Origin: a virus
Length of the DNA: 64,000 nucleotides
Reading direction: 5' to 3' (one strand)
Virus record (IMG/VR): IMGVR_UViG_3300020045_013880
Span: 140-64,139 of that record
Shown here: piece by piece, positions 11,189 to 30,295 of the stretch
How positions within the stretch are numbered: the first letter of the stretch is position 1
How the letters are laid out: every line of letters begins with the position of its first letter
Translations under genes and position numbers: made by a program
The notes under the pieces: model-generated
What the model was told of the DNA's origin: nothing
The model's database searches: none
Seen by the model: the letters and a program-made list of their open reading frames with translations, nothing else

Positions 11189-11625
11189 TCAACAACTTTT
11201 TTCTTCCAACCTTCATCAATTTGATGTTTGGAAAGCCCCAAACTTACATGAATAAAGTCTTTGAATGTTGGGTAAGTATTTTTTAATGCAGTATTATTCA
11301 CTTCTTCCCCTGGCCATCTTAGTTGTAAGTCATGAATATAACTATCAATTAATTCCGCATTCATTAATGAAATCCAATTTGACCCAGAAATTGGCAGTCG
11401 TGCTGATTTCATAAATGCGTGGAGTTCCAAAATACGGAAGCCGTTAGCAACATTCTGTTTGACAAAAATCACTTTTGTCTCATTTATTTTCTTCAACTCT
11501 TCATCTGTTAGTTGAAATGCAGAAATTGCATCTAAAGAATCGTATGGCAAGTAAACACCGAATGCTTCTGTATTTATTGGATTTTCAAGAATTTCTGTTT
11601 GTTGTCTAAATTCAATCTGTTTCAT
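11146..11625 (-). CDS. hypothetical protein
   Basis: Overlaps both neighbours in the operon. Confidence 0.6.
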   Translation of the reverse strand: MKQIEFRQQTEILENPINTEAFGVYLPYDSLDAISAFQLTDEELKKINETKVIFVKQNVANGFRILELHAFMKSARLPISGSNWISLMNAELIDSYIHDLQLRWPGEEVNNTALKNTYPTFKDFIHVSLGLSKHQIDEGWKKKVVEWEKIAEMHKEVKM

Positions 11626-16533: not shown

Positions 16534-17628
16534 ATGGCAGTAAAGAAAGAATACGATATTTTCTCTAATAAATCTCAATTAGAGTGGTGTGAATGGAGTA
16601 GTGGCAAAATTGCTCCACGTGGAACTATCTGGAGGAGAATGAACCATGACAATCATCGTTTCTATTTTTCTCGTATTGATGGAGAAATTGCTATCGGTTG
16701 TGGAATCACTACCGCTATTGATAAATCTCATGGAGAGTCTATTTACATTAGACAATGGAAAGACAAAACTCCAAACTGGCCACAAGAGTTAAAAATTCGT
16801 GCTGACTATGGAACGCTTTGCCATACTGGATTAGCAGAACTTGCCAAAAATGGGAAAATACCAAAATACTTGTCAGAAATTGCCGACGAAGTTTTCAATA
16901 AGAAAAAGCAGTTTTTGAAAGATATGCTTTGTTTGAAGAAATTCATCATTGATTACAAAGTAGAATTTCATTTTATTGAAGGTATTCTTGGAAAAGAAAT
17001 TGTATTGCCAAATGGAAAGAAATGTTACATCTGTTCTGCGATTGATGTTTTCTGTTCAATGTTTGTTCCTGTAAAAGTAAAAAAACAAGTTCAAATCGGT
17101 GTATATGTCAAAGGGAAAAACAAAGGACAGCCAAAATATGAAACTCAAACAGTAGAGTCAATTGAGGAAACTCTCGCTATTCTTGATTTGAAATCAAACT
17201 GGTTTGCTGATGAAGAAAAAACTTTCTACGACTCTCACAAACAACAATTGATTTTTGGAAGAGAATTAATTTGCTCAACATTCGGAATAGAAGAAGAAAC
17301 CGAAGTAAAAATGTATAATATTTCTACTTCTGGATGGAAGACAGAGCCAAAGTATATCCTTAAACAGCATTTTAATGAAGAAAATGACTGGGGTTATAGT
17401 GATAAGCAGTTGCTCAACAATCGCTTAAATACTGCAATTATGGAAGGAAACGTTCAGCCGAAAGGACAAATTTTCTTAATTGAAGACGAAATTTCTTTGG
17501 AGTCAGAAAATGACTATATGACTATGAGTTATGAAGAATTAGCCGAAAAAACTCTAATTGATATAGAAATGGAAAACAAAAAAAGAAATGAGCAATCTAA
17601 CCGAAGCGAAGAAAACGAGAGTAAGTAA
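16534..17628 (+). CDS. PD-(D/E)XK exonuclease (recombination)
   Basis: A.YGT.CH, FIEG, AIDV, ILDLKS and QQL motifs. Confidence 0.7.
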   Translation: MAVKKEYDIFSNKSQLEWCEWSSGKIAPRGTIWRRMNHDNHRFYFSRIDGEIAIGCGITTAIDKSHGESIYIRQWKDKTPNWPQELKIRADYGTLCHTGLAELAKNGKIPKYLSEIADEVFNKKKQFLKDMLCLKKFIIDYKVEFHFIEGILGKEIVLPNGKKCYICSAIDVFCSMFVPVKVKKQVQIGVYVKGKNKGQPKYETQTVESIEETLAILDLKSNWFADEEKTFYDSHKQQLIFGRELICSTFGIEEETEVKMYNISTSGWKTEPKYILKQHFNEENDWGYSDKQLLNNRLNTAIMEGNVQPKGQIFLIEDEISLESENDYMTMSYEELAEKTLIDIEMENKKRNEQSNRSEENESK

Positions 17629-17690
17629 AGCAAAAAGGATAGAGTATGAATCGTATAGAAATAGATGGTACTTAATTAAATCTAAAATAG

Positions 17691-17879
17691 ATGAAAGTAG
17701 AAATAAAAATTGAGTGCGATGATATTCAAGATTTAAAAATGCACTTATCAGTTATCCGTGGGCAGATACTAAACAGAGCTAAAAAGTTTCAAACTGACGA
17801 TGACGTTCCAGAAAGTATAATGAACTTTGAAGACTCTAATTGTTATGGAAGCCACGAAGTTAAATTTACTGGAATATGA
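17691..17879 (+). CDS. hypothetical protein
   Basis: ATGA overlap with the next gene. Confidence 0.55.
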   Translation: MKVEIKIECDDIQDLKMHLSVIRGQILNRAKKFQTDDDVPESIMNFEDSNCYGSHEVKFTGI

Positions 17880-18130
17880 ATCAGAAAATAGCAAAATTAG
17901 CTTTAGGTTTTACATATCCTTCCTTATTTAAGGATATTCTAAAACAAATATCTCAAACTCCAGATTCAGAGAATGAACAGTCTTTGAAAATTTTCTTAGA
18001 AAATCAAAGCCAATTATCTGAAATAGAAAAAGACTTTCTTATTGGAGAGCATTGCAAAGTTGAGTTTAACAACTCAGAAGAAAAGCCTTATTACGTAATT
18101 AGTTGGAATAATTTTATACACATTAAATAA
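17876..18130 (+). CDS. hypothetical protein
   Basis: Operon-packed ORF. Confidence 0.55.
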   Translation: MNQKIAKLALGFTYPSLFKDILKQISQTPDSENEQSLKIFLENQSQLSEIEKDFLIGEHCKVEFNNSEEKPYYVISWNNFIHIK

Positions 18131-18137
18131 CAAAAAA

Positions 18138-18959
18138 ATGAGTGATTGGAGACAAAAAATGAAAGAAGAATCAAAAGGTTCTGACTTTCCAAAATTAGAT
18201 ATTTTAACAAGATTGCACCCGAAAACAATCGAAAATTCTCAATGTTTGACATTTTTCACAAAAGATGAAAATGGAAACTCTATGCAAAAAAAGATTTCTG
18301 AAATTGAAGGAATTTTAATTGGTTCGTATAAAGTTTATACTGCATTCTCTCAGACAGAAAACAGGTCATATACTACTACGCCATTCTTCGACAAAACAAA
18401 TCAAGTTAAGATTTTCACAACAAAGCAAGGAGATAAAGTAGATTTCAAAGGAACTGCTACCGAAGCCCAAGATTGGATTTTCTTGAAAACAAAATCTACT
18501 GTTAAAATGCACTTAGTGCTTGTATTTTTGAGAGAGAAAGGATTTATTACGGTTGAGACAAATATGTCTCTTGGAATTTGTTTAATGTCTCGTATTGGAG
18601 AATCTCGTATGCAATACTTAGTTTCGGTAAAAGCGAAACTATACGACCCAAATGATTTCAAGAAAGACAAGTTGCCAGAAAACTTTAAAAAGATGGCTGA
18701 GAAAAACAAGCCTACTTATGCTGATTTGATTGTAACTACAAAAGAAATCGACCAAAATATCTCTGATTCTTATAGAATCAACGAGCAATATGATAAATAC
18801 ATCGAGTACAAGAAGTTTGTGATTAATGGGAATGCTGCGGTAGTTGAAGAAGAAAAAGACGAACTCGAAAACGAGCAAATCCCAGCTTCGAGTGATTACA
18901 ATTTTACTAATCAGTCTGTTTCTCCAGCAATTAGTGACGACGATAATTTGCCGTTCTAA
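18138..18959 (+). CDS. putative single-stranded DNA-binding protein
   Basis: Acidic C-terminal tail DDDNLPF; follows the exonuclease. Confidence 0.6.
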   Translation: MSDWRQKMKEESKGSDFPKLDILTRLHPKTIENSQCLTFFTKDENGNSMQKKISEIEGILIGSYKVYTAFSQTENRSYTTTPFFDKTNQVKIFTTKQGDKVDFKGTATEAQDWIFLKTKSTVKMHLVLVFLREKGFITVETNMSLGICLMSRIGESRMQYLVSVKAKLYDPNDFKKDKLPENFKKMAEKNKPTYADLIVTTKEIDQNISDSYRINEQYDKYIEYKKFVINGNAAVVEEEKDELENEQIPASSDYNFTNQSVSPAISDDDNLPF

Positions 18960-18967
18960 TTTCCAAT

Positions 18968-18995
18968 AAAAAAGCTCCAGAAATGGGGCTTTTTT
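18968..18995 (+). terminator. intrinsic terminator
   Basis: AAAAAGCTCCA-GAAA-TGGGGCTTTTTT. Confidence 0.75.
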
Positions 18996-19012
18996 AATTA
19001 AAAAAAGAAAAA

Positions 19013-19459
19013 ATGTTAGCAACTATAAACACTGATGCCAGTTATTCAAAATTAACAAAACAAGCGACTTTCGCATTTTGGATAAAGACAGATATGTACA
19101 CAATTAAGCGTAGCGGAGTTATTAAGTCACTTTGCGATACTTCTACCGAAGCTGAGTTAAAGTGCATTATAAACGCCATTTATACGATTTCTGAGCAAAC
19201 TGGAATAACTGAAATTATCCTAAATACTGACAGCTTAAATTCAATCCATATTTTAACAAAAGATATTAAGAATATTAGGAAATATAGATTGCATTGGGGC
19301 GACAAATATTTGAAAATGGTGGAATCTATCATAAAAAACATAAAGATTGATTACAGGCACGTAAAAGCACATAATGACACAGATTCAAGAAGAACTTATG
19401 TTAACGATTGGTGTGATAAAGCGGCTAAAGAACAAATGGGTAAAATAATATGTAAGTAA
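19013..19459 (+). CDS. ribonuclease HI-like protein
   Basis: NTDAS, EAEL, NTDS, HVKAH and NDWCDKAAK (DEDD catalytic set). Confidence 0.85.
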   Translation: MLATINTDASYSKLTKQATFAFWIKTDMYTIKRSGVIKSLCDTSTEAELKCIINAIYTISEQTGITEIILNTDSLNSIHILTKDIKNIRKYRLHWGDKYLKMVESIIKNIKIDYRHVKAHNDTDSRRTYVNDWCDKAAKEQMGKIICK

Positions 19460-19504
19460 CTTTTTAAAAAGCCATTTATGTGGCGTTATAAGTAAATTAC
19501 AACT

Positions 19505-19660
19505 ATGAAAAAAACCAAAAAACAAAAAAAATATCCTCTAAAAAAAGATATTATTTACGCAACACGTAATGAGATTGAAAAACTTCATACTGAACTAAAT
19601 ATTGTTCCATTTGTCTTTACCGACCATTTAGCTGGAAAAGAATGGAATTATGGAGAATAA
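19505..19660 (+). CDS. small hypothetical protein (51 aa), first cassette-like gene
   Basis: MKKTKKQKKYPL...WNYGE*, below the ORF-track cutoff; its stop is 3 nt before site 1. Confidence 0.5.
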   Translation: MKKTKKQKKYPLKKDIIYATRNEIEKLHTELNIVPFVFTDHLAGKEWNYGE

Positions 19661-19663
19661 TTT

Positions 19664-19743
19664 TCCCAACTGGGGCAATTATGCTGACGAAGTGAGCAAG
19701 GAACGCAGCCCTGCTCGCTTTGACACTAATTGCATAGTTGGAA
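19664..19743 (+). repeat. attC-like site 1
   Basis: TCCCAAC-TGGG-GCAATTA...TAATTGC-ATA-GTTGGAA, 80 bp. Confidence 0.75.
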
Positions 19744-19837
19744 GAAAACAAGCGTAGCGACCCCGCTAATCGAGCATCGAAGACGCAAGATTAGCTTAAT
19801 GATTTTAAAATAAGACTATAAACGAAGCGGCTTCGTA

Positions 19838-20065
19838 ATGTCGCAAGTGATTATGAGTGAAGTATTTAGCGTAAAAGATAAATTACCAAACGTAGAGTGT
19901 GGAAGTTTTTTAGTGTTCGCACCAAAAAGTTTCCCTAAAAATAGTCGGTGGTTGGTAGCTGAATATTACGACGATGTAAAAGGATTTTACAGTGAATCGT
20001 CTGAAAACTTTTTAGACGATGTTACGCACTGGTCTAATTTACCTGAAGAACCAAAATTAGCATAA
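19838..20065 (+). CDS. DUF551-like cassette gene
   Basis: FSVKDKLP ... VTHWSNLPEEP. Confidence 0.7.
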   Translation: MSQVIMSEVFSVKDKLPNVECGSFLVFAPKSFPKNSRWLVAEYYDDVKGFYSESSENFLDDVTHWSNLPEEPKLA

Positions 20066-20085
20066 TACGAAAAACTAAAATAAAG

Positions 20086-20310
20086 ATGAAAAAATAATTT
20101 ATCATTGTCGGCTGGGAATCTAATAATATTTGGAAAGTTGCAGAAGTTTTGCAGTCTGTTTCTGATGATTATGGCTTTAAGTCGGCAGAAGATATTGAAG
20201 ATGCAATGATTTTTTATTCATTCAAGGAAGCTAAAACAATGAAAGACCATTTGGATGCAAAATATTCTGATGTAAGTTGGTATATCACGCTAAAATCTTA
20301 CGAGGAATAA
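20086..20310 (+). pseudogene. cassette gene with in-frame TAA at codon 4
   Basis: MKK*FIIVGWESNNIWKV...LKSYEE*; ends 4 nt before site 2. Confidence 0.6.
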
Positions 20311-20314
20311 GCAC

Positions 20315-20392
20315 TTCCAACGGCTTCAATTGCGACCGTGCTGTAAAAGTGAAAACTTTTTGCTGCCATGTACGTAATTGCCAGCGTTGGAA
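20315..20392 (+). repeat. attC-like site 2
   Basis: TTCCAAC-GGCTT-CAATTGCG...CGTAATTG-CCAGC-GTTGGAA, 78 bp. Confidence 0.8.
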
Positions 20393-20599
20393 GAAAACCG
20401 ATTTAGGCAATTTCGCTTTGGAGAAGTCGCCGAGTGCATTTTGTAGAATTAACACTTTGAAAATGAGTGAATTATTTATATATTTGTTCATCGTTTATTC
20501 AAGGGGTCGGATACTTGAACTGACGATTTAGACTTTTAGTCTATAACTGCCCCAATATATGCAATCCGACGCATTGAGGGACTTTTTTTATTTACAATT

Positions 20600-21118
20600 A
20601 TGTCAAAAACTGGATTTAGAAACGGAGATTTGTTTTGTTTCAATTGTGGCACATCTCAAAAAATGCCATTGCCTATGCCTGTTCAATTAGCAACTGATTT
20701 TATGAAATCATTTGAAAAACTTCATAAGGATTGCGAAAAAACATGGACAGAACCAAAAAATGAAACGAGCGAAAAAAGTGAAATTGAAAACGCTTTGTGG
20801 TGGCTTAAAAATGGAGAACAAGGTATAAGTTCAAAAACAATGTTCAAATACCTTTCTGACGACAATATTCCGCTAAATATTAACAGCGAAAGCCATCCAT
20901 TAGACCCTGACGATTTTAAAAGGTGCTATAAGTTACTAAAAGCAGTTCCTCAATTTAAAGTGAAGTTAGGCAGAATGAGAAATATAAGCACAACTTGGGC
21001 TAATTTGGTGGACAATTGGGATAAGCTAACAGAAATGTATGAGGAAAACGTAAGGACGGAGTGGAAAAACTATAAAAAAATAGGAATGTATGAATTTATG
21101 AAAAGTCTCGGCTGCTAA
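20600..21118 (+). CDS. cassette gene, phage hypothetical protein with N-terminal CxxC
   Basis: CFNCG, GEQGISSKTM, HPLDPDDFKRC..LL. Confidence 0.75.
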   Translation: MSKTGFRNGDLFCFNCGTSQKMPLPMPVQLATDFMKSFEKLHKDCEKTWTEPKNETSEKSEIENALWWLKNGEQGISSKTMFKYLSDDNIPLNINSESHPLDPDDFKRCYKLLKAVPQFKVKLGRMRNISTTWANLVDNWDKLTEMYEENVRTEWKNYKKIGMYEFMKSLGC

Positions 21119-21122
21119 AAAC

Positions 21123-21199
21123 TTCCAACTTTAAGCTGGGCGATGGAGAAGTATTTTGACTTCAAAATTGCTCACCTTTACGCATAGCGACAGTTGGAA
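21123..21199 (+). repeat. attC-like site 3
   Basis: TTCCAAC-TTTAA-GCTGGGCG...CGCATAGC-GACA-GTTGGAA, 77 bp. Confidence 0.8.
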
Positions 21200-21273
21200 C
21201 GGTGAGCCTTTAAAACTCCGCCGACCAACGGTCGCCAAGTAAAACTCGAGAACCAATAAATCAAAAAAAGAAC

Positions 21274-21555
21274 ATGGACACCAACGCAAATCAAACGTCG
21301 AATGAGACTGTAACCGCAAAAAAATACACATTGCAAGATGTAGTTAATTCAATTATATCAATAGATATGAGAGGTTCTAATAATTGGCAAAAAAGAGTTG
21401 ATAAATTATTTGAAATACTAAAGGCATCGACTAATAATTCAAAAGAAATGCCAGCGTTTTCTTTTACTCCATTTTATTATATTGAAAATGGCGAATGGTA
21501 CGCAAGTACATGGGAAATGAAAAAGGCAGTATGTCCTTTAGATATTGAAGTTTAA
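21274..21555 (+). CDS. cassette gene, hypothetical
   Basis: ORF between sites 3 and 4. Confidence 0.65.
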   Translation: MDTNANQTSNETVTAKKYTLQDVVNSIISIDMRGSNNWQKRVDKLFEILKASTNNSKEMPAFSFTPFYYIENGEWYASTWEMKKAVCPLDIEV

Positions 21556-21569
21556 TCGTTGTACAAGTT

Positions 21570-21648
21570 TTCCAACTGGGGCAAAGACGATGAAGGAGTA
21601 ATTGAGGAACGAAAATTTGCCCTCTTTTACTTCTTTGCAGAGTTGGAA
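21570..21648 (+). repeat. attC-like site 4
   Basis: TTCCAAC-TGGG-GCAAAGA...TCTTTGC-AGA-GTTGGAA, 79 bp. Confidence 0.8.
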
Positions 21649-21737
21649 GAAAACCAATTTTGAACGCTCCGCCTTCGGGGTGTCGCCGAGTAAATTAGAG
21701 ATTTTTGAGTTTGAAACCATAAACCCCCGCTTTAATC

Positions 21738-22151
21738 ATGTAGAATAGAACTAAGCGTGAATTAATCAAAAATAAATTTGGGGGACTTTGTGCATATTCT
21801 GGTAAGGAATTAGACGAAAAGTGGCAAGTTGACCATGCAATGCCAAAAATGCACCCAATTTGGATACAGGATAAAGAAATGAAGTTAAAATATGGAGTGT
21901 CTTTTGATGATGTAAATGATATTGGAAATTTAATTCCCGCTATTTCGATAATAAATCACTACAAAAGAGATAGAACAATAGAACAATTTCGGGAGTTTAT
22001 GCTTACTTTTCATAAAAGACTTGCCAAATTGCCTAAGAAAACGGTAGTAAAAGCAACTGAAAGAAGAATAAAATACATGAAAAAGGTAGCTGAACTTTTT
22101 GAAATTGAAGTTGATAAACCTTTTTGTGGTAAATTCTATTTCGAGAACTAA
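21738..22151 (+). pseudogene. HNH endonuclease cassette gene with TAG at codon 2
   Basis: M*NRTKRELIKNKFGGLCAYSGKELDEKWQVDH...NLIPA...NHYKR; the ORF-track start at 21840 omits the CAY/VDH part. Confidence 0.7.
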
Positions 22152-22153
22152 CC

Positions 22154-22233
22154 TTCCAACTGCCTGCAAATGTGATGCAGGAGTATTGAGCAAAGCGAAA
22201 ATTGCCCTCGTTTACATATTTGCTACGTTGGAT
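22154..22233 (+). repeat. attC-like site 5
   Basis: TTCCAAC-TGCCT-GCAAAT...ATTTGC-TAC-GTTGGAT, 80 bp. Confidence 0.8.
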
Positions 22234-22307
22234 GGCAAACCAACGTGGCAAAGCAACGCTTTCCAAGTGTCGCCAAGTGCCAAACAGAGAATAAACACTT
22301 TTTAATT

Positions 22308-22526
22308 ATGAATGATATTTCAAAATGTTGTGGTTTTAGAATTAAGCCAAATACTACCGAAATGTGCGGAAAAAGAAACGATTGTAAAAGATTTATTTCA
22401 GTTGAGCCACTAAAAACACAATCAATGATTGAACCAAAATTTGTCAATTATTTATCAAGAAATGGCAGAATATTATGGTCGGTAGATTGTGAGGATTTTT
22501 TAACTAAAAATAAAGATGAAAGTTGA
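22308..22526 (+). CDS. cassette gene, Cys-rich small protein
   Basis: MNDISKCCG...CGKRNDCKRF...CEDF; the ATG at 22308 is preferred over the ORF-track start. Confidence 0.6.
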   Translation: MNDISKCCGFRIKPNTTEMCGKRNDCKRFISVEPLKTQSMIEPKFVNYLSRNGRILWSVDCEDFLTKNKDES

Positions 22527-22561
22527 AATTAAATTTTGTCCTAACTGGCTGAAAACTAAAT

Positions 22562-22629
22562 TTCCAACTGTTTGATGGGCGATGAAGTGGTCATTTTCGG
22601 CAATCTTTTACGCACTTGTTTCGTTGGAG
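22562..22629 (+). repeat. attC-like site 6
   Basis: TTCCAAC...GGGCGATGAAG...CTTTTACGC...GTTGGAG, 68 bp. Confidence 0.7.
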
Positions 22630-22756
22630 TTTCGGGATTTTCAAACGCTCCGCTAATCAGATGTCGCCAAGTGCCAAAACACCGCTTCGATAATATGCGA
22701 ACCGCTTTTATAAACCATTCTCCCCAAATTTGAGGAGAATCAAAACAAACAAAAAT

Positions 22757-22999
22757 ATGAGAAATAGACAAATGCTTGCTTTTGCTCAAATGGCTGCTTT
22801 AAATTACGATTTCAATACTGGAATAACTCCAAGAAAGGTTGATTTATCGACCGAGAAAAAAGAACCTCCAATTCCAAAAGGTCATAAAATTTTCTATTTA
22901 GATGGAGTTGAAATTACTGCTTTGAATCAAAAAAACGCTATAAAGAAATTTCAGAAAAAGTATCTTTATACGCCTACTATTGATATTGTCGTAGAATAA
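22757..22999 (+). CDS. cassette gene, hypothetical
   Basis: MRNRQML...PIPKGHK.F..DG.EI.ALN.KNAIKKF. Confidence 0.65.
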   Translation: MRNRQMLAFAQMAALNYDFNTGITPRKVDLSTEKKEPPIPKGHKIFYLDGVEITALNQKNAIKKFQKKYLYTPTIDIVVE

Positions 23000-23004
23000 G
23001 CCAC

Positions 23005-23083
23005 TTCCAACTTTTGCAAAGCCGATGCCGTAGTAATTTTTGTCAAAAAATTTGCTCGCTTTTACTTATTTGCATAGTTGGAG
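23005..23083 (+). repeat. attC-like site 7
   Basis: TTCCAAC-TTT-TGCAAA...TTTGCA-TA-GTTGGAG, 79 bp. Confidence 0.8.
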
Positions 23084-23154
23084 ATTCAGGCACATGAGAA
23101 AACGCTTTTACGAAGTCGCCCGATATGAAAGCGTACCAAACTAAAAATAAAACT

Positions 23155-23415
23155 ATGAACACCAACGCAAATCTAATGTCGGAAAAATCTGAAAAGGTAA
23201 TGACATACGCTAAAAAGTTGTCAAAAGAGTGCGAAGATGATGAAGAATTTATGGATAATTTTGAAGCTGTTTTCTGTCATTTAGAAGATGCGATAACCGA
23301 ATTATCTATAATTAAGCAGGTTGAAATAGTTATTTGTGCAATGAAAATAACTTTACTCGGCAGGAGGAAAATTATGAAAGACACTTTTGATACAAGAAAG
23401 ATTTTGATGGCGTAG
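23155..23415 (+). CDS. cassette gene, hypothetical
   Basis: MNTNANLMSEK...; lies between sites 7 and 8. Confidence 0.6.
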   Translation: MNTNANLMSEKSEKVMTYAKKLSKECEDDEEFMDNFEAVFCHLEDAITELSIIKQVEIVICAMKITLLGRRKIMKDTFDTRKILMA

Positions 23416-23422
23416 AACATTT

Positions 23423-23499
23423 TTCCAACTGTGGGAAAGACGGCCCGAAGTGGTTTTGTAAAAAACTTGCGAAGCGGCTCGCTCTTTGCATAGTTGGAA
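23423..23499 (+). repeat. attC-like site 8
   Basis: TTCCAACTGTGGGAAAGA...TCTTTGCATAGTTGGAA, 77 bp. Confidence 0.8.
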
Positions 23500-23591
23500 G
23501 TAAGCAAGCGTAGCGAACGGAAGACACGAAGTGTCGCCCGTGAAAGTTGAGAATTGAAATCTAAAATAAAACTTAAAAACACGCAAATATC

Positions 23592-23921
23592 ATGTCGGAA
23601 ATAACCATAAGTAGAGATGAAATCAAAGAAGATATTTATGTAGAGATTTTTGAAAAAGAATCACACCATGCCCACGAATTAGTTCTTGATAAAGACGGGA
23701 CGATTCGATGGAAAGCAGATAAATATACTAATCATTATTTGCAAAATATATCTTTAAATGATTTATGCACATTATTGCAAAATTTAGGATTTGGGAAAAA
23801 TTCAGAAGTATATCGAAAATTATACAGGAATATGGGAACTTCTCTTTTTGCATATTGGGAGGTTTTTTACTGGGAAATAAATAATGAAGATGCTGACGAA
23901 TACGTCGCTAATGCGTTTTAA
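23592..23921 (+). CDS. cassette gene, hypothetical
   Basis: 109 aa; its stop is 1 nt before site 9. Confidence 0.7.
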   Translation: MSEITISRDEIKEDIYVEIFEKESHHAHELVLDKDGTIRWKADKYTNHYLQNISLNDLCTLLQNLGFGKNSEVYRKLYRNMGTSLFAYWEVFYWEINNEDADEYVANAF

Positions 23922-23922
23922 T

Positions 23923-24012
23923 TTCCAACACTAAGTTGGGCGAAATTCGAGTAAAAAGGTGTGAGCGAAAGCGAACGCCTTGCGAAGACATTTTGCCTAA
24001 CGCAAGTTGGAA
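23923..24012 (+). repeat. attC-like site 9 (last in array)
   Basis: TTCCAAC-ACTAA-GTTGGGCGAAAT...ATTTTGCCTAAC-GCAA-GTTGGAA, 90 bp. Confidence 0.8.
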
Positions 24013-24026
24013 CTCCCGAAAACATG

Positions 24027-24061
24027 AAATCCTTCAAACTATAACGCTTGAAGGATTTTTT
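24027..24061 (+). terminator. intrinsic terminator closing the cassette array
   Basis: AAATCCTTCAA-N-TTGAAGGATTTTTT. Confidence 0.7.
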
Positions 24062-24117
24062 AGTTTTTATAGTGCGAAATATGGTTAAAAAGATATTTGA
24101 TTTTATTAAAATTACTC

Positions 24118-24259
24118 AATTGTACTTTTCAAAGAATATTTGATTGAAATAGCGTGTTTTTCGATAAAAACGTTGTATTTTTCAAAGATTCTTTTTTTGT
24201 TGCTTGTTTGTTAAATATAATAATGTAATATTTGTACTATCATTAAATAACAAAACAAA
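24118..24259 (+). repeat. hairpin-plus-promoter repeat, copy 1
   Basis: AAAGAATMTTTGA...TCAAAGATTCTTT inverted repeat, T tract, then TTG-N20-AATATTTG. Confidence 0.85.
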
Positions 24260-24263
24260 CGCT

Positions 24264-24980
24264 ATGCAAGAAATCAAGAAAAGTTTTTCGCTTGAATATT
24301 ATATCAAGCAAAACACCTACAAAAAAATGCCCTACACTATACCAGAAATCTATCAATATCTCGAAACGTTCGGAAAGTTGCCTTTTAGTTGTAGCGACAC
24401 GGAAAATTGGGTTTATGAGTATTTAATTGAGAGACAAAGAAAATTTGGAGTTTATAATGACCAGTTTTTTACTCCTCCAGCATTGTGCGAGAAATTTGCA
24501 AATGAAATTGATTCTCACGTACCTGTTTTTAAGACTGATTTTATAATTGACTTATGTTGCGGATTTGGTGGACTTTCAAAATCATTTAAAAATAAAGGAT
24601 TCAACTATATTGCTGGAGTTGATTGCGACAAAGAACAAGATTTCGACTATGCTTGTGAAAAATTAGGAATCAACTATTTAGATTCTGACATTGAAAGTTT
24701 AAATGTGGAGGTTTTTAAAAAAGCAGATTTGATAATTTCAAACCCTCCATATCAAACAAATTTTTATCCACACTTTTTTAACAAAGCATTTGATTTGTTG
24801 AAATCTTACGGCACATTAGCTTTGATATTGCCAACTACTTTTTTCGATAATTTGAGAGATAGAGAAACTAAAAAATCTCTCGAAAAATGGACTTTGCCGT
24901 ATAAAATTTGTGATTCAAACATAGATTTTGCGAGAACAAAAATATCAACTTCAATTTTCATTTTAAACATAAACGATTAA
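24264..24980 (+). CDS. N6-adenine DNA methyltransferase-like protein (gamma motif order)
   Basis: QFFTPP, DLCCGFG, ISNPPY; start MQEIKK lies downstream of the promoter repeat. Confidence 0.8.
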   Translation: MQEIKKSFSLEYYIKQNTYKKMPYTIPEIYQYLETFGKLPFSCSDTENWVYEYLIERQRKFGVYNDQFFTPPALCEKFANEIDSHVPVFKTDFIIDLCCGFGGLSKSFKNKGFNYIAGVDCDKEQDFDYACEKLGINYLDSDIESLNVEVFKKADLIISNPPYQTNFYPHFFNKAFDLLKSYGTLALILPTTFFDNLRDRETKKSLEKWTLPYKICDSNIDFARTKISTSIFILNIND

Positions 24981-24984
24981 TAAA

Positions 24985-25866
24985 ATGCACTCACTAACAA
25001 GTTACACACAGAGAGCTATATCAGCCCACTCATGGATTTCTTTTCGCCCAGACGAAAGAGGAAAACAGTACATCGCTGAATGCGAATCTGAGCTTAAGCA
25101 AATTTTAGACTCAGTTCCTCCAGAGACTCATCATTGGGTAGCGGAAAAGTACAAACGTTTAATGTCTCATCACATTAGTAGCTTATCAAGAACTGCCAGC
25201 TCCGCTATTACTGGAGGGAGTGGCTTTAATGTTCGCAGACAAGAAAAAATGCGTAAATGGGAGCAGTCAAGTATGGAAACTTGGAGAGCATGGGTAAAGA
25301 ATATTGTCAAGAAACTGAACAGAGCAGAGCGGCCAACTCTCGATGTCCAAGTTGAAGAAAAGATTCAGCTAATCGAAGACTTAAAAGCAAATCATCAAAT
25401 GATGATTGATTCTAACAAAATTGTGAGAAATAAAAAGCTCACTTTGGAAGAGAAAAAAGAAGAGCTTTCTAATATCGGACTCGAAAACGAACTTATTGAA
25501 AAGTTATTTTCTGACAGGAATTTTTGGGGAGATGGATTTGCTGGTTTCCAACTAACTAACTCAAACGCAAAAATCAAGCAACATGAGAAAACTCTTGCCG
25601 AGCTTCAAAAAAGAGTTGAAGCAAGAAATGTTGAAGCTGACGAAGAAACAATAAACGGAGTAAGATTTGTTAGAAATATTGTGGACAACAGGCTGGAAGC
25701 TCATTTTAATGGAAAGCCAGAAAGAAAAACTATTGACTTACTAAAGTCTAATGGATTTCGTTGGACTCCATCAAAAGAATGCTGGCAGTCTTATCTTTCG
25801 ATAAACCATCACAAGCTAAATGAAGTTATTGAACACGTAAAATCTTTGAAAAATGACTCTTTCTGA
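24985..25866 (+). CDS. phage/conjugative-element hypothetical protein
   Basis: SSAITGGSGFN.RR.EK, FQLTNSNAKIK, NRLE..F.GKP....IDLLKSNGFRW.PS..CWQ. Confidence 0.65.
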   Translation: MHSLTSYTQRAISAHSWISFRPDERGKQYIAECESELKQILDSVPPETHHWVAEKYKRLMSHHISSLSRTASSAITGGSGFNVRRQEKMRKWEQSSMETWRAWVKNIVKKLNRAERPTLDVQVEEKIQLIEDLKANHQMMIDSNKIVRNKKLTLEEKKEELSNIGLENELIEKLFSDRNFWGDGFAGFQLTNSNAKIKQHEKTLAELQKRVEARNVEADEETINGVRFVRNIVDNRLEAHFNGKPERKTIDLLKSNGFRWTPSKECWQSYLSINHHKLNEVIEHVKSLKNDSF

Positions 25867-26128
25867 ACACAAAAAAGCAATCAAAGTTCTTAAAAAAGGA
25901 ATTATTGCCCTAAAAAAAGTAAGTCCAGTATCGCAAGAAGATTGGAATGAGTACGAAAAGCAAAAGGAGCTTTTACGGATTGAGCATAAAAGACTTTATT
26001 ATGCAAATAAGGAATTTTCTGGAATGAGTTCTGATTCAATACTAACAATGTTCAGAGCTAATTTAACATTGAGAACCATATAGTTCCATCAATTTGGAAT
26101 TGCAATAGACTACGAGAAGCTAAAATGA
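25853..26128 (+). pseudogene. hypothetical gene with in-frame TAG (26081-26083)
   Basis: ...LTLRTI*FHQFGIAIDYEKLK*; the read-through frame ends in an ATGA overlap with the next gene. Confidence 0.5.
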
Positions 26129-26334
26129 TTCATAAAGGCATGGAATTTGTCAGAGTCGATGTAGAAAGCATCGACTCTACAAAGAAAACTCTAAGAGCTA
26201 TGAAAATACCTCACAGAGTAATTAAGGTAGCAATACCTCACTCAATGATTTTAAGTAAGAAGACTTTTTTTATTAAACAACAATTATTTATTCAAAAAGA
26301 TTATGAAGAAAAATTTAAGAATTGCATCGTTTGA
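26125..26334 (+). CDS. hypothetical protein
   Basis: Operon-packed ORF. Confidence 0.5.
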   Translation: MIHKGMEFVRVDVESIDSTKKTLRAMKIPHRVIKVAIPHSMILSKKTFFIKQQLFIQKDYEEKFKNCIV

Positions 26335-27073
26335 TTTAGAAACTACTGGCGTAGATACAAACAAAGACAAAATTGTTCAACTCGCTGTACAGTTGCTCGA
26401 ATACGATTTTGAGCAAAAAGAGTTTATAACTCTTAAAATGTACGAAACTTTAGTAAACCCTGGCATTCCAATACCTGCTGGAGCTACGGAAGTTCATGGA
26501 ATCAGTGATGAAATGGTAAAAGATGCTCCGAAGTTTGAAGAAATTACAGGGGAATTGATGATTTTCTTCGGATATGAAACTGATTGCTTGAGCGGTTACA
26601 ATATTGGAAGTTTCGATGTTCCTTTAATTCTCACCGAATTTGACAGAGCTGGAATTGATGTAGATTTCTCTGGTAAAGTAATTTTGGACACATTCAAAAT
26701 CAACAATCACTTCAACCAAAGAACTCTATCAAATGTGTATAAGAATTACACACAAAAAGAGCTGGAAAATGCACATAGTGCGATGGTTGATGTAAATGGC
26801 TCAAATGAAGTTTTGCTCGCCCAGATTCAACAGCACGCACTTAATTTTGAAAATCCAAAAGAAATTGAATTGATTGTAAGCAATAACAAGCCAAGAGTTG
26901 ATTTTTCTCAGAGATTTACAGCTAACGAAGCTGGCGAGTTTGTGTTCAATTTTGGAAAGAATCAAGGAAAAAATGTTCTTTTGGAGAAAAACTATTTGAA
27001 TTGGATGCTTGGGCAGGACTTCTCAAATGATACCAAAAAGTGGATTAAAAAGTTCCTTAAAGATGATTATTAA
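26303..27073 (+). CDS. DEDDh 3'-5' exonuclease (DNA polymerase III epsilon-like)
   Basis: FDLETTG, VHGI, GYN..SFD, AHSA..DV and C-terminal FNFGK. Confidence 0.9.
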   Translation: MKKNLRIASFDLETTGVDTNKDKIVQLAVQLLEYDFEQKEFITLKMYETLVNPGIPIPAGATEVHGISDEMVKDAPKFEEITGELMIFFGYETDCLSGYNIGSFDVPLILTEFDRAGIDVDFSGKVILDTFKINNHFNQRTLSNVYKNYTQKELENAHSAMVDVNGSNEVLLAQIQQHALNFENPKEIELIVSNNKPRVDFSQRFTANEAGEFVFNFGKNQGKNVLLEKNYLNWMLGQDFSNDTKKWIKKFLKDDY

Positions 27074-29482: not shown

Positions 29483-29842
29483 ATGAGATGGAAAATAAAT
29501 GAAGAGCCAGTAGGAAATACTTGTCCAATTATTGACTCAGTAATCAGAGATGCAAATAGCTTGTTCAATGCAATTCAAGAGCAAGATGAATCAGACCATC
29601 AAAACATTAAAGACATTCTTGATTCAATGGAAGAAATTAGGTCAGCTAATGCCAGTCTAAGAAGTTGGGGAAATGATTTAGTAAAAGAAGTCGAAGAAAA
29701 ACAGGAAGAAATAGATGAATTAGAAAAAAAGGTTTCAAATCTTGAAAGTGATTATAGTTCATTAGAGCAAGACTATAACAAATTGGAAAAAGAAGCCGAA
29801 AATCTGAGAAAACAAATAGAAGACTTGGAAAGTCAACTTTAG
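29483..29842 (+). CDS. coiled-coil protein
   Basis: PVGNTCP.ID, EEIR.AN..LR.WG and a heptad C-terminus. Confidence 0.7.
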   Translation: MRWKINEEPVGNTCPIIDSVIRDANSLFNAIQEQDESDHQNIKDILDSMEEIRSANASLRSWGNDLVKEVEEKQEEIDELEKKVSNLESDYSSLEQDYNKLEKEAENLRKQIEDLESQL

Positions 29843-29928
29843 TAGAGAGCATCGGAATCGAACCGAAACGTTTTTAGTCGTCGAGCCGATTAGCAGTCGG
29901 TCCATATCACCATCAATGTTTACTCTCT
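29843..29928 (-). tRNA. tRNA-Ser(GCT)
   Basis: Acceptor AGAGAGT/GCTCTCT, anticodon loop CTGCTAA, long variable region, T loop TTCGATT; no encoded CCA. Confidence 0.75.
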
Positions 29929-29934
29929 ATTTAG

Positions 29935-30007
29935 TATGGACTGCGAGAGTCGAACTCGCAAAAACTTGTTCCTAAGACAAGCGTGTCTGCCATTCCACCA
30001 AGTCCAC
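29935..30007 (-). tRNA. tRNA-Leu(TAG) with short variable loop
   Basis: GTGGACT/AGTCCAT, D arm GTGGAATGGCAGACAC, CTTGT-CTTAGGA-ACAAG, GCGAG-TTCGACT-CTCGC. Confidence 0.8.
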
Positions 30008-30015
30008 AATTTGAG

Positions 30016-30091
30016 TCTGATATGCAAGATTTGAACTTGCGTTCTCCTGTGTCCAGAACAGGCGAGGACGGCCTAACTCCTCCAATACCAG
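30016..30091 (-). tRNA. tRNA-Pro(TGG), atypical anticodon loop
   Basis: CTGGTAT/ATATCAG plus A73, CCTGT-TCTGGAC-ACAGG, GCAAG-TTCAAAT-CTTGC. Confidence 0.65.
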
Positions 30092-30222
30092 ATATAAAAA
30101 AAGTCTTCACAAATTAATGAGAAGACTTTTCTAATGAAAACCAAATTCATAGTCAAGAATCCTCAGATAAAATCTGCGGCAGAAGACTAAGGATATTTAA
30201 GTTTTGATTTTTCATTTTTTAG

Positions 30223-30295
<73 letters not shown>

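Follow-up and report, generated by a model that had tools for sequence, protein, structure and literature searches.

Hairpin sites between small phage genes and in Emticicia chromosomes: a probable integron-like cassette system common to virus and host genus

The question raised by this locus is why nine similar palindromes stand between the small genes of a phage. The original prediction, made on the 64,000-nucleotide stretch of viral DNA analysed here (the window), took them for attC-like sites of an integron-like cassette array. Our analysis suggests that they are probably single-stranded DNA recombination sites, belonging to an integron-like gene-cassette system common to the phage and its host genus Emticicia. 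A pattern search recovered all nine elements on the plus strand, where they had been predicted. They are 68-90 nt long, lie 3′ of small plus-strand genes, and all nine begin with T(T/C)CCAAC and end with GTTGGA(A/G/T). The pattern CCAAC-N50-80-GTTGGA matched the window 18 times against 0.43 expected, and none of 100 shuffles attained 18. These matches comprise the nine plus-strand sites, eight of the same sites found again on the minus strand, the two ends being complementary to each other, and one unrelated match at 11205-11271. The distances from stop codon to site, e1 to e9, are 3, 4, 4, 14, 2, 35, 5, 7 and 1 nt, in agreement with the predicted 1-14 nt and the 35 nt of the sixth site.

19664-19743, plus: hairpin site e1, TCCCAAC...GTTGGAA, opens the array; fold z -5.6; covariance model 50.2 bits
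19838-20065, plus: DUF551 protein, 75 aa (PF04448, 29.5 bits); start reads ATGTCGCAA
20149-20310, plus: 53-aa ORF with TTG start, without family match
20315-20392, plus: hairpin site e2, 63 bits; 96% identical to a hairpin of phage contig G004 with unrelated flanks
20600-21118, plus: 172-aa protein, phrog_1229 (unknown function)
21123-21199, plus: hairpin site e3, 68.8 bits; 88% identical to hairpin G009:C2:154038-154115 within an Emticicia sp. chromosomal array
21274-21555, plus: 93-aa ORF, without family match
21570-21648, plus: hairpin site e4, found by pattern, fold and covariance model (73.8 bits)
21738-22151, plus: HNH endonuclease, phrog_2118; TAG at codon 2 in the window genome
22154-22233, plus: hairpin site e5, 61.8 bits; solitary in a metagenome contig, both flanks unlike
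22308-22526, plus: 72-aa Cys-rich ORF; 22287-22319, spanning its start, is 100% identical to a CRISPR spacer of Emticicia aquatica
22562-22629, plus: hairpin site e6, short 68-nt copy; weak fold, z -0.41; 43.8 bits
22757-22999, plus: 80-aa protein, phrog_37413 (unknown function)
23005-23083, plus: hairpin site e7, 72.7 bits; metagenome contigs have e7 with unlike flanks; interior 23042-23077 is a 94% match to an Emticicia CRISPR spacer
23155-23415, plus: 86-aa ORF, without above-threshold family match
23423-23499, plus: hairpin site e8, found by pattern, fold and covariance model (38.4 bits)
23592-23921, plus: 109-aa ORF; start reads ATGTCGGAA
23923-24012, plus: terminal hairpin e9, distinct subtype with apical GAGCGA(A/T)AGCGAAC; no GTCGCC motif downstream; 39 bits
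24027-24058, unstranded: intrinsic-terminator-like hairpin with T run, closing the transcription unit just past e9

The predicted folding was seen in eight of the nine sites (z-scores of -2.5 to -6.1), and for seven of the nine no shuffle (n = 200) folded as well. The e5 fold was equalled by 4 of 200 shuffles; e6 folded no better than its shuffles (61/200). The covariance model gave exactly nine plus-strand matches in the window (38-74 bits, against 17 bits for the next one, which is unrelated), which arise partly by construction since the nine sites were in its training set. Across 51 family members, the inner stem showed double compensatory changes in seven of its eight pairs, which bears out the self-complementary inner box that had been described. 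Compensatory cells numbered 125 against 49.8 in shuffles (0/500 shuffles attained 125), and 94.1% of inner-stem cells were paired, against 26-48% with partners slid. The sequence and the family alignment display an attC-like architecture as predicted: an invariant outer stem carrying AAC/GTT (TTCCAAC paired with GTTGGAA); an unpaired spacer of 4-6 nt beside it; a covarying inner stem of 7-8 bp, free in sequence with pairing always kept; a conserved loop of mismatches (G-ATGA opposite TTTA-C), which an invariant G-C pair closes; and a variable tip. The prediction needs amending in that the module is a composite of the hairpin and CGCT-N8-TGTCGCC about 33-36 nt downstream. This second motif keeps a fixed distance in both host and phage (GTC at +33 to +36 in 211 of 244 modules), and one observed boundary lies at it. 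In the window the accessory GTCGCC motif was found at these positions:

20426-20431, plus: after e2
21231-21236, plus: after e3
21682-21687, plus: after e4; exactly here the HNH unit becomes near-identical in metagenome contigs (joint 19747 to 21682)
22269-22274, plus: after e5
22663-22668, plus: after e6
23115-23120, plus: after e7
23533-23538, plus: after e8

RNase III sites between the early genes of phage T7 provide a model for a quite different function, in which cleavage or binding of the hairpins within a polycistronic phage transcript would give each cistron a stable 3′ end. We regard this reading as improbable. The location of the hairpins 1-14 nt past the stops (35 nt for e6), on the sense strand of one transcription unit ending at the 24027-24058 terminator, would suit it, and so would the long imperfect stem with its conserved internal loop. 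However, no Rfam family matched, whether at gathering scores or with E-values allowed up to 5. Moreover, RNA processing would leave the sequence-invariant outer boxes, the cassette-type boundaries and the neighbouring recombinase described below unaccounted for, and the strand on which host genes lie argues against it.

The predicted phage host is the freshwater bacterium Emticicia (Bacteroidota, Cytophagales), as named by two matches of the window to the CRISPR arrays of two Emticicia genomes (33 nt at 100% and 36 nt at 94%). The hairpin family was found in phages (3-20 sites each) and in four Emticicia genomes with at least 33-84 covariance-model matches each; the host counts are lower bounds, with 150 candidates scored per genome. 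Genomes with matches made up 4 of 61 in a sample of the family. The Emticicia chromosomal arrays extend over 35-160 kb in a single orientation (e.g. G009:C2 476-36264 and 80163-159607). The core had been regarded as the phage's own; instead, the site type is that of the host, and hairpins of Emticicia chromosomes and of phage contigs are as much as 100% identical (over 89 nt between a hairpin of contig G007 and an E. aquatica chromosomal hairpin). Relative to the model orientation, the gene is antisense in 55 of 65 host cassettes and sense in 34 of 38 phage ones. Better folding nevertheless belongs to the same strand in both (159 of 177 host and 33 of 37 phage hairpins), and G-T pairs are distributed 826 versus 122 in the host set and 104 versus 39 in the phage set. 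That the structured strand is constant though gene direction is opposite in host and phage argues for a DNA site over an RNA signal; since the better-folding strand in the phage is the mRNA strand too, the hairpins may have an added RNA role there. Given that phage genes lie on the structured strand, integron geometry would assign each hairpin to the cassette of the following gene, with the boundary at TTCCAA|C rather than G|TTGGA on the phage gene strand. Phage cassettes are inverted relative to those of the host; the two pools may not mix.

The host arrays behave like integron cassettes, and cargo travels with its 3′-side hairpin. Among 17 homologous host cargo pairs, the 3′-side hairpin was the more similar one in 12 and the other side in none, with five ties; interior identity was 0.94 on the 3′ side versus 0.72. 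Duplicated host segments (length ≥250 nt, identity ≥93%) numbered 28, all within single genomes and none between genomes. Their left ends fell at the TTCCAAC box in 20 of 25 scorable cases, their right ends just within the next TTCCAAC box or up to 30 nt past it in 15 of 23, and no end fell at the GTTGG box. The window cargo had no homologue in ~380 kb of host arrays, and this comparison gave no sign of host-phage cassette exchange for the window phage; the sole exception was a partial methyltransferase match, and the gene it hit lies outside the array.

In each of the four Emticicia genomes, the best match to the integron-integrase model was an intact Xer/IntI-like tyrosine recombinase of 383-390 aa. 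In three of the four it is located 1.1-3.3 kb from the first array hairpin, upstream of and co-oriented with the cassette genes, and this adjacency is what makes it the candidate enzyme for the hairpins. An integron-type enzyme in the strict sense was not found: the recombinase scores below the curated cut-offs for TIGR02249 (193-206 versus 265 bits) and NF040815 (193-212 versus 220). It carries an N-terminal extension of ~107 aa and has 18 residues where Vibrio IntI4 has 60, and therefore the IntI-specific region is apparently absent. A canonical integron was ruled out by the apparent lack of this region, the extra site motif and the inverted phage cassettes.

Identical or near-identical hairpins with both flanks unrelated, homologous from the TT of TTCCAAC to GTTGG(AA), are also what selfish miniature palindromic repeats (REP- or MITE-like) would leave when spreading into intergenic spacers of host islands and phages without any gene-moving role. 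This origin is very improbable in view of the strict single orientation over up to 160 kb with regular spacing of one per cassette, the accessory motif at a fixed distance and the co-travel of cargo with one flanking hairpin. Copies are, in addition, confined to arrays adjoining the recombinase, and no within-gene copy occurred among the arrays inspected.

Relatives of the window phage allow the array to be compared between viruses. Uncultured phages carry up to 20 modules (G003, 20 sites in 11 kb) and other viral contigs 3-11 sites each; 100 metagenome loci gave 99 covariance-model matches, including ~10 opposite-strand repeats of the same sites. In all four phage contigs having the e9 subtype, this hairpin is the final array site. 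Phage G005, a family member with terminase, portal and capsid genes, has a recombinase gene of its own 1.5 kb from its array, and the product shows 37% identity to the host enzyme. Contig G006 shares the downstream genes with the window (43-73% amino acid identity) and no cargo: flanks are syntenic and cargo is wholly different. Homologues of the phrog_1229 protein (52-55% identity) were found in two other viral contigs, outside any hairpin array. Homologous cargo pairs numbered four among 72 phage cassettes, and their hairpins were at background similarity. The HNH gene recurs in metagenome contigs with 0-1 differences from the window, one contig having TCG at codon 2. In two freshwater runs, in which e5 and e7 also occur with unlike flanks, the HNH match ends exactly at the TTCCAAC end (22160). 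The left edge of this near-identical unit is GTCGCC (21682) behind a different hairpin and not a TTCCAAC box; here a further process operates as well, either homologous exchange between repeats or a second site. Breakpoints had been predicted at G/TTGGA. The HNH right edge lies right after TTCCAAC instead, and host ends avoid GTTGG altogether.

The left edge at GTCGCC agrees with the most serious alternative, which we consider unlikely overall: a regulatory linker like the PeSLs of T4-type phages, acting as an insulating or expression signal in the transcript, with shuffling as a by-product of homologous recombination between 80-125 nt modules and no dedicated recombinase. In length and conservation the module suffices for homologous exchange of the phage type, for which T4 needs patches of <50 bp (PMC2839356), and hairpin-only homology with unlike flanks is common. 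The stable phage strand is the mRNA strand, and the window phage lacks a site-specific recombinase. Phage G005 has a RecT-like annealing protein and an exonuclease. On the other hand, a T run follows none of the nine plus-strand hairpins, and sigma-70-like promoter matches were not enriched (37 versus 40.7 expected) in a scan that left Bacteroidota promoter types outside. An mRNA signal would differ in host arrays with reversed genes, where the structured DNA strand is unchanged. Exchange anywhere in a repeat would not yield host duplicates bounded by one 7-nt box with no end at GTTGG, and a tyrosine recombinase adjoins the arrays in three of four host genomes.

We therefore return to recombination sites as the preferred reading. 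The cassette-array claim is upheld insofar as unrelated small genes are separated by the sites, syntenic relatives carry different cargo and the host module forms integron-like arrays; recombination in the window phage we infer. Neither PF00589 nor PF00239 gave a hit in the complete phage genome, so the model requires a host enzyme in trans. During infection, this enzyme would act on the folded strand, cutting and joining it at TTCCAA|C, by which units of a hairpin and the following gene could be deleted, inserted or reordered. The special final hairpin e9 would close the array, and small phage accessory genes would thereby be kept in a hyperplastic store. The sequences suggest that virus and host may swap such genes via one recombination system.

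Several known systems resemble this arrangement. Xer-dependent pdif modules of Acinetobacter plasmids are accessory genes bracketed by sites of Xer-family tyrosine recombinases and move as modules. The pdif sites are short, double-stranded (11-6-11 bp) and alternate in orientation; the phage sites share the bracketing of accessory genes, whereas pdif sites are not folded hairpins of 80 nt.

Clusters of attC sites lacking an integron integrase are termed CALINs (Cury et al. 2016, PMC4889954), and the lack of a phage recombinase leads us to interpret the array as a CALIN-like cluster in which host-type sites hold phage cargo. Recombination of phage attC clusters by IntI1 is on record (Qi et al. 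2023, PMC9892861), and the same paper reports that Vibrio phages contain fragments of chromosomal integrons from their hosts. As described there, phage CALINs are alike in their co-oriented AAC...GTT hairpins between small genes of a virulent phage without integrase, and in the proposal of a host integrase acting in trans. The minimum in that paper is two sites, and the phages here have 9-20 each. These arrays differ from CALINs in combining the site type of the host's own arrays with phage-type cargo, in having genes on the structured strand, the reverse of the host arrangement, and in their dedicated terminal site, extra fixed-distance motif and candidate enzyme that is not a canonical IntI.

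Sedentary chromosomal integrons, as characterised in Vibrio (PMC8618304, PMC4889954), resemble the Emticicia arrays in their tens to >80 homogeneous sites of one orientation, cargo mostly of unknown function, folded strand opposite the genes, attC-like site at the gene 3′ end and boundary within a GTT-containing box. Unlike them, Emticicia has a recombinase without the IntI-specific region, with the ~107 aa N-terminal extension and co-oriented with the cassettes, and ~200-350 nt of non-coding DNA per cassette with iterated GTCGC motifs. According to IntegronFinder 2.0 (PMC9024848), hardly any complete integrons were known from Bacteroidetes.

PeSL cassettes of T4-type phages (Arbiol et al. 2010, PMC2839356; Comeau et al. 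2014, PMC4122927) share the repeated stem-loops between small non-essential genes, the hyperplastic region and the shuffling of gene content at modules. PeSLs are described as a promoter plus terminator exchanged by homologous recombination, whereas the phage modules here have no T run or promoter consensus, covary as a fold of one DNA strand whatever the gene direction, and match a host array associated with a recombinase.

All nine elements of the original prediction were found on the + strand of the window, and its coordinates, end sequences and lengths (68-90 nt) proved accurate. They lie at 19664-24012, all co-oriented within 4.3 kb of a record that represents a complete viral genome, which is 64,139 bp long and ends in direct terminal repeats. 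The predicted distances from the stop codon of a small + strand ORF to each site hold as well, with 1-14 nt in general and 35 nt for the short copy e6. The two-box pattern matched the window 18 times, compared to 0.43 matches expected by chance; these are the nine + strand sites, eight of them re-read on the - strand, and one unrelated match. Folding energies of eight of the nine sites are well below those of shuffled sequences (z -2.5 to -6.1), and e6 folds no better than its shuffles (z -0.41). Integron attC sites carry an inverse core RYYYAAC and a core GTTRRRY, which pair with each other. In all nine sites, the ends T[TC]CCAAC and GTTGGA[AGT] agree with this consensus in the AAC and GTT triplets and in the YYY/RRR runs. 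The outermost 5′ position is T instead of R in nine of nine sites, and the outermost 3′ position is R instead of Y in eight. Searching the whole window with Rfam 15 at gathering scores, only tRNAs matched; between 19400 and 24300, with E up to 5, four chance-level matches were obtained (E 0.18-4.6), none of them on the hairpins. Four tRNA genes (Ser-gct, Leu-tag, Pro-tgg, Met-cat) are located on the - strand at 29842-30295, within a + strand gene block.

An intergenic alignment revealed that seven of the nine window hairpins are followed, at a distance of about 35 nt, by another conserved motif, CGCT-N8-(T)GTCGCC, so that hairpin and motif form a composite module. A first viral scan with the pattern TTCCAAC...GTTGGA...GTCGCC returned at least 114 stretches, mostly chance single matches, and among the matches listed only L079, L052, L080 and L109 were real. 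In IMG/VR pattern scans, the related uncultured phage contig G003 carries 20 hairpins in 11 kb, and further viral contigs carry 10-11 (G005), six (G004) and three each (G006 and G007). The consensus fold was taken from an alignment of 51 hairpin copies, in which the outer stem CCAAC/GTTGG and the closing G-C pair are invariant. The original prediction had named covariation as a check; a covariance model was built, and seven of the eight inner-stem pairs covary, with double compensatory changes. Of the inner-stem cells, 94.1% are paired, compared to 77.3% in shuffles and 26-48% with slid partners. Changes on both sides were counted in 125 cells versus 49.8 in shuffles, and 0 of 500 shuffles reached 125. 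The layout is attC-like, with an unpaired spacer, an inner (L) stem and a variable tip conserved by structure and not by sequence. The covariance model finds exactly nine sites in the window, partly by construction. In 100 metagenome loci it matched 99 times, single contigs having as many as ten matches, and about ten of the 99 are opposite-strand repeats of the same sites.

Other readings of the two motifs were considered. Kink-turn, hammerhead and CRISPR-repeat mimicry were dropped, as the conserved positions do not appear to correspond (tested with Rfam). Reading the GTCGCC motif as part of a uORF was rejected by eye, a possible start codon preceding only about 60% of copies. A small hairpin GTC...GAC is formed in 91 of 182 host copies but in only 6 of 44 phage copies and is therefore not a general feature. 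Many cargo genes, i.e. the small genes between the hairpins, start with ATGTCG(C/A/G)A (window 19838 and 23592; several starts in the stretches L148 and L149), and their start codon falls within a copy of the TGTCGC motif, despite a genome G+C content of 32%. The long leader after e2 contains a conserved structured element of about 100 nt (window 20492-20595) that ends in a T run. Its counterpart follows a hairpin in G003 (L148 10117-10215) with about 80% identity and two compensatory pairs. An Rfam search with this element gave no match; it is a candidate small RNA or leader.

A host scan with the same pattern, covering one genome per prokaryote species, returned at least 120 stretches, and among those listed only Emticicia and its close relatives (Arcicella, Spirosomataceae and Cytophagaceae MAGs) had multi-copy matches. 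The genome records include the cultured strains E. aquatilis CGMCC 1.15958 and E. aquatica CECT 8858. Four Emticicia genomes have at least 33-84 model matches each, which form long runs of one orientation, e.g. 476-36264 and 80163-159607 on a 160-kb contig. In a same-family sample, 4 of 61 genomes had model matches. Window positions 22287-22319 are 100% identical over 33 nt to an Emticicia CRISPR spacer, and positions 23042-23077, in the interior of e7, are 94% identical over 36 nt to a spacer of a second Emticicia genome. Both spacers lie within arrays of the 30-nt repeat GTTTCAATTCCATAAAGGTGCGATTGGAGT, which was counted 54 and 92 times within the stretches inspected. These two matches identify Emticicia (Cytophagales) as the host genus of the window phage, and the target of the second spacer is itself one of the nine sites, e7.

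The host arrays behave as cassettes with integron geometry, each gene being combined with its own site. We collected 28 duplicated host segments of 250 nt or more that share 93% identity or more, every one within a single genome. Their left ends fall at the TTCCAAC box in 20 of 25 scorable cases, and their right ends just inside the next TTCCAAC box or at most 30 nt beyond it in 15 of 23; none of the scorable ends was at GTTGG. Among 17 homologous pairs of host cargo genes, the hairpin on the 3′ side was the more similar one in 12 and that on the other side in none. The host crossover would thus lie within the box whose gene-strand sequence is GTTGGAA, with which the data are consistent at 7-nt resolution. 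In host cassettes of the stretches L400, L401 and L402, about 180-350 nt of non-coding DNA separate the gene's stop codon from the hairpin. This DNA carries two to four iterated ...GCTC-N-TGTC(G/C)C copies, spaced by about 60-70 nt as judged by eye, which may be arm-type binding sites. An Emticicia sp. array also contains a short phage-type hairpin that is 88% identical to e3 (L402 14038-14115, corresponding to G009:C2:154038-154115) and precedes a cassette of 274 nt without a gene. This hairpin may have been left by an exchange between the arrays of phage and host. In the open literature on Emticicia or Bacteroidota integrons and on CALINs, no description of Emticicia-type arrays was found in the titles, abstracts and passages covered; the supplementary tables of PMC9892861 and PMC4889954 could also be relevant.

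Gene direction was compared with the model orientation, which is the strand on which the covariance model reads. Of 65 host cassettes, 55 have the gene antisense to it; of 38 phage cassettes, 34 have the gene sense to it, on the strand that folds better. The folding of the two strands was as follows.

Better-folding strand and G-T pairs in three sets of hairpins
Host set: model strand folds better in 159 of 177; G-T pairs, 826 on the model strand vs 122 on the complement
Phage set: model strand folds better in 33 of 37; G-T pairs, 104 on the model strand vs 39 on the complement
G005 and G007 (hairpins 93-100% identical to host): model strand folds better in 11 of 11; G-T pairs, 42 on the model strand vs 2 on the complement

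Structure therefore tracks the DNA strand and not the direction of the gene, which argues for the hairpins being DNA sites rather than mRNA signals. None of the nine window + strand hairpins is followed by a T run. A scan for sigma-70-like promoters, with Bacteroidota-type promoters outside its scope, showed no enrichment (37 matches vs 40.7 expected). Integron integrases bind the bottom strand, according to passages of PMC8618304 and PMC9892861. In the host, it is likewise the bottom strand that folds better, the cassette gene being on the other one, as in integrons. The phage cassettes depart from this bottom-strand rule, their genes being on the structured strand.

To each of the four Emticicia genomes, an intact tyrosine recombinase of 383-390 aa could be assigned as the best match of TIGR02249.

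Recombinase genes in the four Emticicia genomes, by stretch inspected
L396 5160-6332: tyrosine recombinase
L397 12535-13686, - strand: tyrosine recombinase
L398 3854-5026: tyrosine recombinase
L403 7356-8522: tyrosine recombinase

In three of the four genomes, the gene is located 1.1-3.3 kb from the first hairpin of the array, upstream of and co-oriented with the cassette genes; in the fourth it lies at a contig end. The proteins carry a SAM_4 and a catalytic domain. Among NCBIfam models, they match best to 'XerA / integron integrase' (193-212 bits, cut-off 220) and TIGR02249 'integron integrase' (193-206 bits, cut-off 265). The IntI-specific region near patch III is a defining feature of integron integrases, as stated in part of PMC4889954. 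Alignment to Vibrio IntI4 (2A3V) matches on either side of this region, where the Emticicia recombinases have 18 residues and IntI4 has 60, and about 107 residues, unassigned to any domain, are extra at their N-terminus. The Emticicia recombinases thus lack the IntI-specific region (intI_Cterm) and a score above the cut-off. By their neighbourhood and best match they are IntI-like, but by the defining feature they do not belong to IntI. A broken recombinase copy (frames of 232 and 91 aa) is present inside the first array of the Emticicia genome G010 (C1:2645933-2646762). In the complete 64,139-bp genome of the window phage, searches for tyrosine (PF00589) and serine (PF00239) recombinases gave no matches.

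Relatives of the window phage were sought in several ways. Megablast of 17000-27000 against 50,697 phage records gave no match, and a terminase search found relatives that were all below 30% identity and no cultured one. RNase H led to two proviral contigs (36-40% identity) without elements, their pattern counts equalling the reversed-pattern control. Searches with the primase-like gene and the HNH gene found no relatives. In the window, the array forms the end of a + strand gene block with RNase H among its genes; after the array come a terminator and then genes for methyltransferase, primase and polymerase-exonuclease. G006 shares the downstream genes with the window at 43-73% amino acid identity and has no cargo genes in common with it. 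A cargo gene of G006 shares 86% identity with a gene of G003 that is flanked by different hairpins, and the DNA homology there extends no further than the ORF and the TTCCAAC after it. Phage cargo is highly diverse, with four homologous pairs among 72 phage-type cassettes, a number too small to inform on co-travel of cargo and hairpin. Window cargo was absent from about 380 kb of host arrays searched. Two viral contigs encode homologues of the 172-aa window cargo protein, and no hairpin lies within 3 kb of these.

Metagenome contigs came from two freshwater DNA runs of one study that contain 6-7% of the sampled window words; window parts lacking contig cover there are uninformative. No RNA run among the public sequencing runs listed matched the window. 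In the freshwater contigs, the HNH gene (window 21738-22151, phrog_2118, between e4 and e5) shows 0-1 differences, and the match stops exactly at 22160, the last base of TTCCAAC. In one contig, an e1-like hairpin is followed by 30 other letters and then by GTCGCC at 21682 with the HNH unit. The unit thus has one boundary of each kind, on the right exactly at TTCCAAC and on the left at GTCGCC. Hairpins e5 and e7 each occur alone between unlike flanks. Chimeric assembly at the boxes seems unlikely because these are far shorter than the 31-letter indexing words. From the HNH unit boundaries and the lone e5 and e7, it appears that units move in phages; one type of boundary is that expected under the integron model, and the other coincides with the accessory motif. 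The GTCGCC boundary would also fit a PeSL-like linker exchanged by homologous recombination, the main alternative. We regard this explanation as unlikely, since it is weakened both by the strand test, where structure tracks the DNA strand, and by the single-box boundaries of the host duplicates. The window HNH gene itself reads ATG TAG at 21738-21743, a stop at codon 2. A metagenome contig has C at 21742, giving TCG, and is otherwise identical at the listed places; the stop may accordingly be either a fresh inactivation in the window genome or an assembly error.

A long hairpin with the apical sequence GAGCGA(A/T)AGCGAAC, e9 in the window, is the last site in all four phage contigs that have it. 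This terminal type lacks the accessory motif, and a terminator follows it in two of the four contigs. By analogy, the terminal hairpin would occupy the place of attI on the structured strand. G005 is a real tailed phage with terminase, portal, capsid and tape-measure genes. It encodes its own Xer/IntI-like recombinase, 37% identical to that of the host and 1.5 kb from the array, and its cargo has distant homologues in host arrays. The G005 stretches concerned are L151 7937-8842 and L151 9831-11449, both on the - strand, and RecT-like and exonuclease genes are present too. G005 may be temperate, with a hairpin site as its place of integration.

Taken together, the window array is probably a CALIN-like cluster of host-type, structure-specific recombination sites with phage cargo; recombination in the window phage is a proposal drawn from sequence. 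Going further, we tentatively suggest, with more doubt than confidence, that a non-canonical integron-like system is common to Emticicia and its phages, virulent as well as temperate. Its enzyme would be an Xer-like tyrosine recombinase without the IntI-specific domain and with an extra N-terminal domain, and its composite sites would consist of the folded hairpin and iterated GTCGC 'arm-like' motifs. The phages would keep a cassette pool of their own, inverted relative to that of the host and closed by an e9-type terminal site acting as attI. The host enzyme, or the copy carried by temperate members, would reshuffle accessory and counter-defence genes during infection. This might represent a second, independently assembled integron kind in viruses. 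Among dedicated gene-capture machines, integrons are the main example. To our knowledge, they are hardly known from Bacteroidota, and their record in phages is limited to small clusters of sites. Distinctive here are a complete virulent phage genome with nine sites of the type that builds 35-160 kb arrays in the host genus, related phages with up to twenty sites, and an Xer-like candidate enzyme that does not pass the IntI tests. If this holds true, site-specific cassette exchange would be a route of accessory-gene turnover in phages, and current integron finders would have missed a whole class of arrays. Cultured Emticicia type strains with predicted sites and enzyme would then offer a tractable system for the origin of integron-like systems from Xer recombinases, as well as a new structure-specific recombination site for engineering.

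PeSL combine a stem-loop terminator and a strong promoter in each module, whereas the window modules have no T run and no enrichment of sigma-70-like promoters, Bacteroidota-type promoters being outside that scan. A CALIN consists of two or more attC sites that are clustered and co-oriented and lack an integron integrase in their vicinity, as defined in the part of Cury et al. 2016 (PMC4889954) that treats them. Provided that the sites count as attC, nine co-oriented sites in 4.3 kb with no recombinase correspond to this. Phage attC clusters have already been published, as part of PMC9892861 reports, and the kind is therefore known. New features are the composite site, its correspondence to a host system that does not pass the IntI test, the opposite orientation of the genes, the site that closes the array, and how large the arrays are and how widely they occur among uncultured phages.
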